The notes below the pieces were generated by a model. That model was not told the DNA's origin and did no database searches. It saw nothing but the letters and a program-made list of their open reading frames with translations. The position numbers and the translations under genes were made by a program. A DNA stretch of 61,240 nucleotides, the filler included. It is 3 parts of 3 records of this genome, joined end to end, with 100 filler letters (N's around TTAATTAATTAA, not from the genome) between each part and the next. Parts side by side here need not be neighbours in the genome. Positions count along the whole stretch, not along the records: positions 27,387 to 51,170 come from DRR723986_4698; 2 more parts are not named here. One strand, given 5' to 3'. Each line of letters starts with the position of its first letter. Positions within the stretch are counted from its first letter, which is position 1. Positions 46,543-48,202 of this stretch are shown piece by piece.

Positions 46543-47228
46543 TCGGTCTCGTCGCGCCTCTCTTCCTCGCCTGCAGCGGCCTGTGCGCCGAGGCTTCGGC
46601 CGAGCGGGAACAGCCCCTCCTTCTTGCAGAGCAACAAGCCGGACCCGGAAACCCCTTCCTCTCAAAGCCGGAAAGCAACGAGCCCCGCACCCGGACCGAA
46701 GACGCCGGTCCGTTCGGCGGCAGCTCGCAACCCGGCCTTTCGGTCCCGACCGATTGCGGAGCATCCTCGGGTCTGGGGCGTGCAGACCTCCGCAAGCCTC
46801 ATGTTGCCGAGGCGCTGTGCGCCGGAGCCTTTCACGACCTCGACGACGAATGGTTGTTCGTCCTGAACTACGTGCGCGGCTTCAACGAATTCCTGGAAGA
46901 GCGCGGGTCCTTTCTGGACCCGACCGGCGCCTGTTCCCGCGCCGTAGAGCCGCGCGCATCGCTCGGGCTGGTCTACAGCGTCGTCGATCGCGCCATGTCC
47001 GGCGACCTGAGCGGCTTCGAAGACGACAGGTTGACGGCGATGTTGAAGCCCTTTCAGGAAGATTGGAAACGACTGCCCTTCATCGTCTGGGAATTGAACG
47101 TTTGGAAACGTGAAGGGCGGCTGGACGCGACAAGTGTGGCCTCGAAAGGCATGTGCGCCGATCCGGCGTTTCTCCTCTTCTGGGATAAAGCCATCGAATA
47201 CGTCCAACGCGTTCCGGTGGTGGACTGA
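46539..47228 (+). CDS. Exported hypothetical protein
   Basis: GTG start overlapping previous stop, GGAGG upstream; signal-like leader; several Cys. Confidence 0.65.
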   Translation: MIGLVAPLFLACSGLCAEASAEREQPLLLAEQQAGPGNPFLSKPESNEPRTRTEDAGPFGGSSQPGLSVPTDCGASSGLGRADLRKPHVAEALCAGAFHDLDDEWLFVLNYVRGFNEFLEERGSFLDPTGACSRAVEPRASLGLVYSVVDRAMSGDLSGFEDDRLTAMLKPFQEDWKRLPFIVWELNVWKREGRLDATSVASKGMCADPAFLLFWDKAIEYVQRVPVVD

Positions 47229-48202
47229 TGGCAATCCGGTTCAGACTGGCCCTCGTCGCATTTGTCCTGTTGTCGGTGCTCGGCGCGTTGCCCGGGCGGG
47301 GGGAGGCCGGGCATTTCGGGCCCCCTCCGTCCGGCCTGCTGCGGTCCTCGGATCAGGACGGCGTTCATCTGGCGAAGACGATCCGCCGGACATTCAATTC
47401 GGCTGCAAAGCCGGTGGTCCGTCCCCCGGCCACGCGGTCCATGGCCCCGAAACCGAAGCCACCCCGTGCGCGTCTTGCGCCCGGGCCACGCCCCCCCGGA
47501 CTCGGGACATCGAGCATACGGGCGCAACCCGGGGCCGGTCCGGTGCGGGGCGCCCGAGCTTCCGGCAGGAACCCGAAAGGCAAGGCCGCCACGATCGCAG
47601 CGGCGGGAAACCGGGCGCCGGCGGTCGCGCGCCCAAGCGCGGCGTTCCGGGCGGAGGCGCGACGCGGCGCCCTACGCCCCGGTTTCAACCGCGCGGCAAG
47701 ACCCGCGGCGCGCGCGGTCCCGGCGCGTGGCGCAACGACACTCTGGGGGACCCCGCCGAATCTCCGAAGGAATACGCTGCGCCCGATCTTCAACGGTTCG
47801 GTCCGCAACTCGAAGATCGCAGCGGATTTTCGCAAGGCGAACAGCTATCCCGGCGCAATGGGCCCCGTGACTTGGCGGCTCACCAAGCCGGGCGAGGTGT
47901 TTACCCGCTCCCACTACGGCTCCTCGAGCAGACAAAGCGGCCGCTATGCCGCGCTGTCGCGATCCCCGAACGTGCGCCATGCACGCGAAACCTATGCGCT
48001 TCCCAAGGCGAACAAGGGCTATCGGGTGTCGCAGTTCGTGGGGACGGGACGCGAGCTTGTCGGCATATCCCGCGTGGCCCCCGCGTATGGACGCCGCGGC
48101 GGTGGCTTGCAGGCCTACTTTCCGTCGATGCCCTCATTCAAGCCGGCCGGTTGGAACAAGGGGGCGCTTCAGGAAATCTTTGGCCAGGCGGCGGCGAAAT
48201 GA
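47228..48202 (+). CDS. Signal-peptide protein with Arg/Pro/Ala-rich linker and C-terminal TNT/Tne2-like putative NAD(P)+ glycohydrolase domain
   Basis: Signal peptide ending GEA/G; C-terminal R..G...G.Y...AR..YALP..N...VAPAYGRRGGGLQAYF motif. Confidence 0.6.
   Translation: MAIRFRLALVAFVLLSVLGALPGRGEAGHFGPPPSGLLRSSDQDGVHLAKTIRRTFNSAAKPVVRPPATRSMAPKPKPPRARLAPGPRPPGLGTSSIRAQPGAGPVRGARASGRNPKGKAATIAAAGNRAPAVARPSAAFRAEARRGALRPGFNRAARPAARAVPARGATTLWGTPPNLRRNTLRPIFNGSVRNSKIAADFRKANSYPGAMGPVTWRLTKPGEVFTRSHYGSSSRQSGRYAALSRSPNVRHARETYALPKANKGYRVSQFVGTGRELVGISRVAPAYGRRGGGLQAYFPSMPSFKPAGWNKGALQEIFGQAAAK

Follow-up and report, generated by a model that had tools for sequence, protein, structure and literature searches.

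What an exported protein that ends in a putative coenzyme-destroying domain is doing beside a cluster of envelope genes, and how the cell producing it would tolerate such an activity, are the questions raised by the open reading frame (ORF) located at 47228-48202 (+) in the window, the whole stretch of 61,240 nucleotides (nt) of DNA analysed here. The ORF has an ATG start and encodes a product of 324 amino acids (aa), for which a preliminary description had proposed Sec export and a C-terminal nicotinamide adenine dinucleotide (NAD) glycohydrolase (NADase) of the TNT/Tne2 type. The answer that we favour, and rate as somewhat better than an even prospect, is that this gene, referred to below as the NADase gene, encodes a Sec-exported TNT-like NAD(P)+ glycohydrolase toxin in an unusual package with a periplasmic partner, the product of the gene immediately upstream (X; 46539-47228, +).

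That the ORF is a genuine gene was concluded from its codon-position GC content (0.77 at third positions compared with 0.67 at first and 0.64 at second positions), from the existence of full-length homologues of its product at 33-57% identity, and from the recurrence of X and the NADase gene as a pair in a metagenome locus (L001). The ORF boundaries in the preliminary description were reproduced, including its coupling to the upstream ORF by a one-base overlap of the NADase ATG with the TGA stop of X (junction ...CTGATGG...), and the peptide strings quoted there (GEVFTRSHYG, GRYA, ARETYALPKAN and VAPAYGRRGGGLQAYFP) were all found in the translation. The next gene (48271-49164, -) is convergent and begins 68 nt past the NADase stop. 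A promoter search found no sigma-70-like promoter, and the terminator-like sites detected (seven against 4.2 expected, none of them between the convergent genes) were uninformative.

The predicted C-terminal domain and its export

The C-terminal domain of ~124 residues (201-324; 47828-48199, +) was predicted to fold confidently, forming an AlphaFold block with predicted local distance difference test (pLDDT) values mostly of 70-94, in which a twisted antiparallel β-sheet with flanking short helices corresponds to the 'palm' fold of TNT/Tne-like NAD(P)+ glycohydrolases, an assignment based on Foldseek, VIA, Pfam and protein-atlas results. When the model, built on an 11-sequence alignment, was compared with the PDB using Foldseek, the sole match at E <= 0.001 was Tne2 (6b12_A, E 1.2e-5, target TM 0.64), followed in order by Tse6, Rhs1-CT and the fungal NADases, with TNT itself at rank 26. 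Subsequent realignment of Foldseek's top 993 chains with VIA, 21 of which reached Z >= 2, placed TNT-like NADases in all of the best 12 entries: Tne2 (Z 11.3, root-mean-square deviation 2.7 Å, 107 residues aligned of the 119 in the target), Serratia Rhs1-CT (Z 9.0, 2.6 Å, 104 residues), Tse6 (Z 8.0), the Neurospora, Aspergillus and Fusarium NADases (Z 5.7-6.9) and TNT (Z 4.5). A VIA scan independent of Foldseek, conducted on all 48,161 representative chains, returned just five with Z >= 5, all of them TNT-like NADases, with TNT sixth at Z 4.5 and a tail of ADP-ribosyltransferase-superfamily proteins at Z 2.5-4.2; the same six NADase entries thus headed both the exhaustive scan and the realignment. 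The preliminary description had named a fold unlike those of TNT and the ADP-ribosyltransferases as the outcome that would count against it, and by both Foldseek and VIA the predicted fold proved to be TNT-like with Tne2 on top. No other solved structures matched the modelled domain to an extent comparable with the TNT-like NAD(P)+ glycohydrolases.

At the level of sequence, the TNT family of Pfam (PF14021) was the only one matched by the window protein (E 0.041, 14.8 bits), no other Pfam or NCBIfam domain being found in it. The same family was matched in five of the six members of alignment A1 (best E 2.1e-4), the sixth being a fragment that lacks the domain, and in four of five further relatives (14.4-18.2 bits), and is carried by 13 of the 30 nearest clusters in the protein atlas. 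Neither the whole protein nor A1 found a meaningful match among PDB sequences; a phage portal protein retrieved from the same sequences by domain profiles (E 0.005-0.017) was treated as a chance match to a short G-rich stretch.

Profile alignment to 4qlp_B paired ...VAPAfGrrGGgvQ with ...VAPGCGQPGGSIQ and, over a longer stretch, ...isrvapafGrrGGgvq... with ...VSEVAPGCGQPGGSIQ... of TNT, thereby placing Q295 on chain index 175, which is Gln822 of TNT. The window domain accordingly presents the arrangement of its superfamily, a candidate catalytic Gln after a Gly cradle (G291-G292-G293, L294, Q295; 48098-48112, +, with the CAG codon at 48110-48112). Counterparts of Gln822 are Gln387 in Tne2 and Gln413 in Tse6 (PMC6398120), and Gln194, which is essential in AfNADase, is given as its equivalent in PMC7955114. 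The preliminary description had taken ALP...AP.FG..GGG.Q as the hallmark of these toxins: the Gln of GGGLQ does fall on TNT Gln822, whereas 'ALP' reads 'ALH' in TNT itself. Its assignment to the TNT family stood to the extent that PF14021 was matched repeatedly, with every score under the gathering cut-off.

Column conservation was determined across 13 domain sequences that are 28-67% identical to that of the window. G291 was present in all 13 and Q295 in 12, with Glu at the catalytic Gln position in P0009 (GGGQE); R227 was likewise present in 12, with Gln in P0013; position 240 was aromatic in all 13, A257-L258-P259 and N262 were invariant, and F201 was found in 11 of 11. The substitutions in P0009 and P0013 may represent natural variation that alters or abolishes activity. 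When the VIA range shared with TNT (203-306 versus 728-846) served as a positional ruler, F201, R227, Y240, R253 and Q295 lay within 0-5 residues of TNT F727, R757, Y765, R780 and Q822, the NAD-binding Arg and stacking aromatics compared being R757, F727 and Y765 in TNT, and R129 and F137 in AfNADase. R253 (Arg in 11 sequences, Lys in one and Gln in one) could stand for R780, its register relative to ALP being ambiguous.

No dedicated delivery module (PAAR, Rhs, LXG, CdiA and similar) precedes the domain, the remainder of the protein consisting only of a signal peptide and a disordered linker. Hydrophobicity, an AlphaFold helix over residues 2-19 and the N-termini of the family all point to the first of these, a predicted Sec/signal peptidase I (Sec/SPI) peptide at residues 1-27 (47228-47308, +): the maximum 13-residue Kyte-Doolittle mean was 2.83 at residue 7, compared with values of no more than 0.68 in the rest of the protein, and the N-terminus contains no Cys and no twin-Arg, with a small-x-small site (G-E-A) at residues 25-27 after which cleavage is proposed to occur. 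A hydrophobic N-terminus was present in 12 of the 15 family members; the other three (P0003, P0004 and P0011) start within or past the aligned signal region, and therefore look like truncated gene calls. The basic Arg/Pro/Ala linker at residues 28-200 (47309-47827, +), assigned from composition, pLDDT and a repeated motif, contains 26 Arg, 7 Lys, 25 Pro, 33 Ala, 18 Gly and 4 acidic residues (net charge +29; isoelectric point (pI) 12), and pLDDT was <50 across most of residues 22-185. The motif [LI]RxxFNxx occurs three times (at residues 52, 149 and 184) versus 0.42 expected from shuffles, at positions conserved across the family (alignments A1 and A2). The Sec-type signal and the long Arg/Pro/Ala/Gly-rich linker had both been noticed previously, and were borne out by the hydrophobicity profile and the composition, respectively.

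A rare family and its upstream partner

The NADase family is rare, exhaustive HMMER searching of 1.84 billion cluster representatives having found eight homologues; a word-indexed search of 5.8 billion clusters found five, and a domain-profile search among longer proteins gave 12 matches. No precomputed Pfam domain was present on any NADase homologue found. Genome contigs searched with A1 and with P0002 contained no relative, a metagenome scan returned none with A1 and L001 alone with P0001, and tblastn with both proteins, the NADase and X, against 72,556 plasmids gave no match.

Among the relatives, P0014 and P0015 each have an Rhs-associated core domain (54.1 and 64.5 bits versus a cut-off of 32.5) followed by a DPLGL cleavage-type motif and then the NADase-like domain, and BLASTP aligned the window domain with P0015 at E 3e-7. 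In P0016, by comparison, the Rhs-type version of the domain is accompanied by a signal peptide and by the linker motif in eight copies. These Rhs-tipped proteins together with P0016 therefore indicate that the Sec-plus-linker and the Rhs carriers share one toxin subfamily.

The partner gene X, recognised by its overlap with the NADase start and by homology to a gene of L001, encodes 229 aa, and its own start shares the bases GTGA (46539-46542) with the end of a gene for a TPR protein. In its product, a hydrophobic N-terminal segment is followed by a variable linker, in which two [ND]PF motifs are conserved, and by a conserved helical domain of ~155 aa. Four Cys residues (C73, C94, C132 and C206) are invariant and hence fit an extracytoplasmic, disulfide-bonded protein, and X is acidic, with a pI of 4.7 versus the pI of 12 of the toxin linker. 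No family was found for X in Pfam, NCBIfam or PADLOC, and the protein atlas gave no usable match. All 10 of its homologues have a hydrophobic N-terminus, and among them are the two named carriers, Fluviibacterium sp. S390 and an uncultured Tateyamaria, both marine Rhodobacterales. Two features of the family may be recorded in addition: the two [ND]PF tripeptides, at residues ~38-60 of X, are invariant in 11 of 11 sequences and may be short linear docking motifs, and the N-terminus ends in a lipobox-like L-x-[AS]-C in four of the 11.

In L001, the X homologue (62% identity, E 1e-72) lies directly upstream of the NADase homologue P0007, the start of which it overlaps by ATGA. For five of the 10 X homologues, the longest contig is equal in size to that of a NADase homologue (18416, 6172, 2848, 7423 and 4996), indirect evidence that those five share contigs with NADase homologues. 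The earlier proposal of a coupled upstream ORF was thus substantiated by the overlap and by the pairing also seen in L001, X itself being exported and acidic. The AlphaFold model of X was all-helical and of low confidence (mean pLDDT 55), Foldseek found nothing for it in the PDB at E <= 0.001 (best E 2.6), and a predicted complex of the domain (196-324) with X (68-229) scored 0.00, a value which, the fold of X being itself uncertain, gives no verdict either way. X may bind the NADase; the observations themselves extend to a conserved, overlapping pair.

No cognate immunity gene of the kind expected of an effector-immunity pair was found downstream: the position is occupied by the convergent gene in the window, and in L001 by a spacer of ~230 bp and then the first gene of the envelope cluster. 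The preliminary description had likewise seen no obvious immunity gene ahead of a convergent neighbour, to which can now be added that the downstream gene of L001 is unrelated.

The envelope cluster, the proposed mechanism and its rivals

Upstream of X lies a co-directional cluster of exported and envelope genes of ~16 kb (30365-46542, +), delineated by Pfam, NCBIfam, gene spacing and the gene order of L001. The ORFs taken as genes between ~30365 and 48202 all share the + strand, frequently with overlaps or with gaps of only a few nucleotides, and the cluster proteins examined have signal or lipoprotein-type N-termini. Read along the strand, the genes specify coiled-coil proteins, a member of the MotA/ExbB family (E 1.4e-8), TPR proteins and a vWA protein of 808 aa; these are followed by a MacB/LolD-like ATP-binding cassette (ABC) ATPase together with its FtsX permease, a protein containing an FGE-sulfatase domain (E 2.6e-15), a lipoprotein with a glycine zipper, a trypsin-like protease and one more TPR protein. 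The cluster also holds two small single-pass proteins. The vWA protein (37807-40233, +) has an acidic Glu/Pro-rich spacer at residues ~100-155 (PEPEPQPEPQP...) with a weak match to a TonB model (NF008084, E 2.8e-4); this spacer is the charge opposite of the NADase Arg/Pro linker, a pairing that is suggestive.

In L001 (1778-10572) the gene order is conserved from the coiled-coil proteins to the vWA protein, and the X-NADase pair lies upstream of the cluster across the ~230-bp spacer, the contig being cut on both sides. The cluster looks like an undescribed envelope machine. It matched no system in PADLOC-DB: of 10 proteins, only two gave weak matches (the MotA-like protein to ZorA, E 1.1e-4, and the CHAT protein described below to BovA, E 0.006), and the NADase, X, the vWA and FGE-like proteins and the protease gave none. 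The MoxR-vWA ternary conflict system (PMC7159879) was considered and set aside as not being this cluster, the terms 'MotA', 'ABC' and 'TNT' being absent from that text.

On the opposite strand, a TPR-CHAT protease gene (49181-51079, -; CHAT E 6.6e-24, with weak local similarity to Csx29) is followed after 17 nt by the gene at 48271-49164 (-), a 297-aa ORF without a family match, and the pair has the appearance of an operon that converges on the NADase gene; no equivalent of either was seen downstream of the NADase gene in L001. With regard to the window as a whole, paired runs of 44 N at 27287-27386 and 51171-51270 bracket the 23.8-kb piece that contains the NADase gene, GC content changes from 0.64 to 0.55 beyond the second run (51300-61240), and the protein encoded at 54271-55902 (-) has a type IX secretion system C-terminal sorting domain, a feature typical of Bacteroidota; the window may join pieces of differing origin, or hold masked stretches.

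In the mechanism proposed for a toxin, the predicted domain would, like all of its structurally solved relatives, hydrolyse NAD(P)+ and yield nicotinamide and ADP-ribose. The producer would be spared because the toxin would cross the inner membrane unfolded and fold only outside the cytoplasm, where there is little NAD+, and Sec export might in this way make immunity dispensable. Acidic X could then hold, escort or inhibit the very basic toxin in the periplasm, the NADase being plausibly the 'cargo' of the operon. Release might follow, possibly via the neighbouring MacB-type ABC system after cleavage by the trypsin-like protease of the cluster, whereupon the polycationic linker could aid binding to or entry into other cells and the toxin would destroy the NAD(P)+ pool of the target. 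The release and linker-uptake steps are the weakest, both being borrowed by analogy from the S8-Ntox35 precedent considered below.

A number of observations weigh against this interpretation. The gathering cut-off of PF14021 (27 bits) was not reached by any member, and domain profiles searched against PDB sequences found TNT only at E 0.14 and 1.1, by way of the C-terminal motif alone. The fold model was built from an alignment of 11 sequences, and we infer all of the residue equivalences other than that of Q295 from the ends of alignment ranges rather than from superposition. Position 226 is Thr, Tyr or Trp, never Asp, such that the Asp of the TNT D756-R780 pair (D128-R148 in AfNADase) is not conserved; the equivalent of the QRxL Arg appears ambiguous from the alignment; and P0013 departs from the family at two points, with Gln instead of R227 and GRG as its cradle. 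Identity between the window and L001 is 62% for X compared with about 40% for the toxin domain; X is the better conserved of the two, unlike fast-evolving immunity proteins. A periplasmic partner would not, in addition, shield sister cells once the toxin reaches their cytoplasm, no outer-membrane release route, target or uptake mechanism was identified for the NADase, and the link to the cluster rests on two loci, in both of which the pair adjoins it, at opposite ends.

The absence of an immunity gene and the presence of a signal peptide would also suit an extracytoplasmic scavenging enzyme, of the kind suggested for the TNT-domain NADases of fungal surfaces, that converts environmental NAD(P)+ to nicotinamide and ADP-ribose so that these can be salvaged; secreted fungal TNT-domain NADases do exist without immunity proteins according to the available text of PMC7955114, the fold and active-site evidence applies to such an enzyme without alteration, and the high conservation of X fits a housekeeping partner. 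The sister sequences are, however, Rhs toxin tips, and neither a polycationic repeat linker of 170 aa nor a neighbourhood of protease, vWA and ABC genes would be expected of a salvage enzyme. As no genes for taking up or salvaging nicotinamide or ADP-ribose were seen next to the NADase gene, and the great rarity of the family (the eight homologues) is unlike a metabolic function, scavenging is considered decidedly unlikely. An equally doubtful prospect is that the NADase is a death effector stored in the periplasm on X, and would be driven or leak into the cytoplasm of its producer once the MotA/ExbB-like, vWA and protease machinery detects envelope damage or phage attack, thereby causing abortive infection, of which NAD+ depletion is a common output. 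The adjacency of the pair to the same cluster in two of two loci favours such a role, as do the weakly ZorA-like proton-channel protein and the proteases of that cluster, and the TPR-CHAT protease operon convergent to it. We know of no mechanism, however, for returning a folded periplasmic protein to the cytoplasm, the PADLOC search gave no system but only the two weak matches, and the MoxR-vWA ternary systems (PMC7159879) differ from this cluster.

The charge of the domain (net +16, pI 11.2) raises the further suggestion of a nucleic-acid or acidic-surface target for an ADP-ribosyltransferase, or an enzyme acting on some other nucleotide substrate, rather than a pure NAD+ hydrolase. Glu, the classical catalytic residue of ADP-ribosyltransferases, does replace the Gln of P0009, and the structural tail consists of transferases that act on protein, RNA or DNA (for example Tpt1, scabin, ParT and DarT; Z 2.5-4.2); but with Gln rather than Glu in the other 12 sequences, and the top six structural relatives all being hydrolases as described in the available text of PMC10539506, this explanation is improbable. 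That the domain is catalytically dead, and a binding or structural module of the envelope cluster, is highly improbable: the uniformly sub-threshold Pfam scores, the missing equivalent of TNT Asp756 and the loss of the Arg in P0013 would be accounted for, whereas the strong conservation of the Gly cradle, Gln, Arg, aromatic and ALPxxN across 13 such divergent sequences, and the use of the domain as an Rhs toxin tip, would not.

A more elaborate version of the toxin interpretation, which we regard as unlikely, has the NADase and X as the payload of an undescribed proton-motive-force-driven envelope machine of marine Rhodobacterales, its putative parts being the MotA/ExbB-like, vWA, MacB-type ABC, FGE-sulfatase-like and trypsin-like proteins, with the toxin stored in the periplasm and either expelled or admitted when the envelope is breached. 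Were expulsion to kill neighbouring cells, a new delivery route would be established for a domain otherwise borne by type VI secretion systems (T6SS), Rhs proteins and type VII secretion systems (T7SS); were the toxin instead to enter the cytoplasm of its producer on breach of the envelope, the device would be one of suicide defence.

Comparison with known systems

TNT-like NADases rank with the most potent toxins used against other bacteria and against hosts, the examples considered here having T6SS, T7SS, Rhs or CpnT carriers together with an inhibitor made by the producer, or being fungal surface enzymes. Tse6, Tne2, TNT, AfNADase and both Serratia tips hydrolyse NAD(P)+ and not NAD(P)H, according to the available text of PMC10539506. 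A narrow literature search found Sec-type TNT-domain NADases only in fungi, and a description of neither the present NADase family nor X.

Tne2, the T6SS effector of Pseudomonas protegens (PDB 6B12), was the best structural match, with which the window domain shares a compact palm and a Gln at the catalytic position. It differs in that sequence identity is just 16-18%, with no match to it at the sequence level, and in that the window protein has a Sec signal but neither a recognised T6SS gene nor a downstream immunity gene. TNT, the C-terminal domain of CpnT from M. tuberculosis (PDB 4QLP), is the only Pfam family matched: its VAPxxGxxGGxxQ motif aligns, a conserved Phe, Arg and aromatic come at roughly matching distances along the chain, and it is exported from the cytoplasm of its producer, as predicted for the window protein. 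The structural match is weaker (Z 4.5), however, the Pfam score is sub-threshold and the window domain has no Asp756 equivalent, while TNT is itself the cleaved tip of an outer-membrane protein, is type VII-secreted, and is neutralised by the cytoplasmic antitoxin IFT.

The second-best structural match was Rhs1-CT of Serratia marcescens Db10 ('Tne3', PDB 6XTD), which the available text of PMC10539506 identifies as a demonstrated NAD(P)+ glycohydrolase; a prior reading of 6XTD as an RNA ADP-ribosyltransferase was dropped on that basis. P0014 and P0015, relatives of the window domain, are Rhs tips as well, whereas the window protein has no Rhs shell or core, and in Rhs systems, as described in the same text, the immunity gene is always immediately downstream.

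The fungal NADases (AfNADase and NcNADase; structural Z 5.7-6.9) resemble the window protein in having a TNT domain behind an N-terminal secretory signal, an extracytoplasmic location and no immunity protein, but are eukaryotic proteins that form glycosylated homodimers and possess a Ca2+ site and an additional 'thumb' domain (available text of PMC7955114), and have neither a polycationic linker nor a partner gene. As an analogy of mechanism only, the basic linker and trypsin-like protease gene are paralleled by S8-Ntox35 of Staphylococcus aureus, described in the available text of PMC13556192 as a Sec-type secreted, diffusible polymorphic toxin that has a peptidase in its locus, is activated by protease and carries a cationic segment promoting homing to target cells; its RNase toxin domain and BetaH carrier are unrelated to the window protein, and its host is Gram-positive.

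If the domain is active, it becomes a question how the producer tolerates and releases a periplasmic NADase, whether the linker serves for surface homing, uptake or docking to the cluster, and whether the neighbouring envelope cluster is a release or a trigger device. Recognition of a divergent, sub-threshold Pfam subfamily could in addition improve the detection of NADase toxins in marine metagenomes. Set against the known systems, the predicted toxin would be new in that a Gram-negative lineage presents the NADase module in a minimal format dependent on Sec, with a polycationic repeat linker and with an exported partner encoded upstream rather than an immunity gene downstream.

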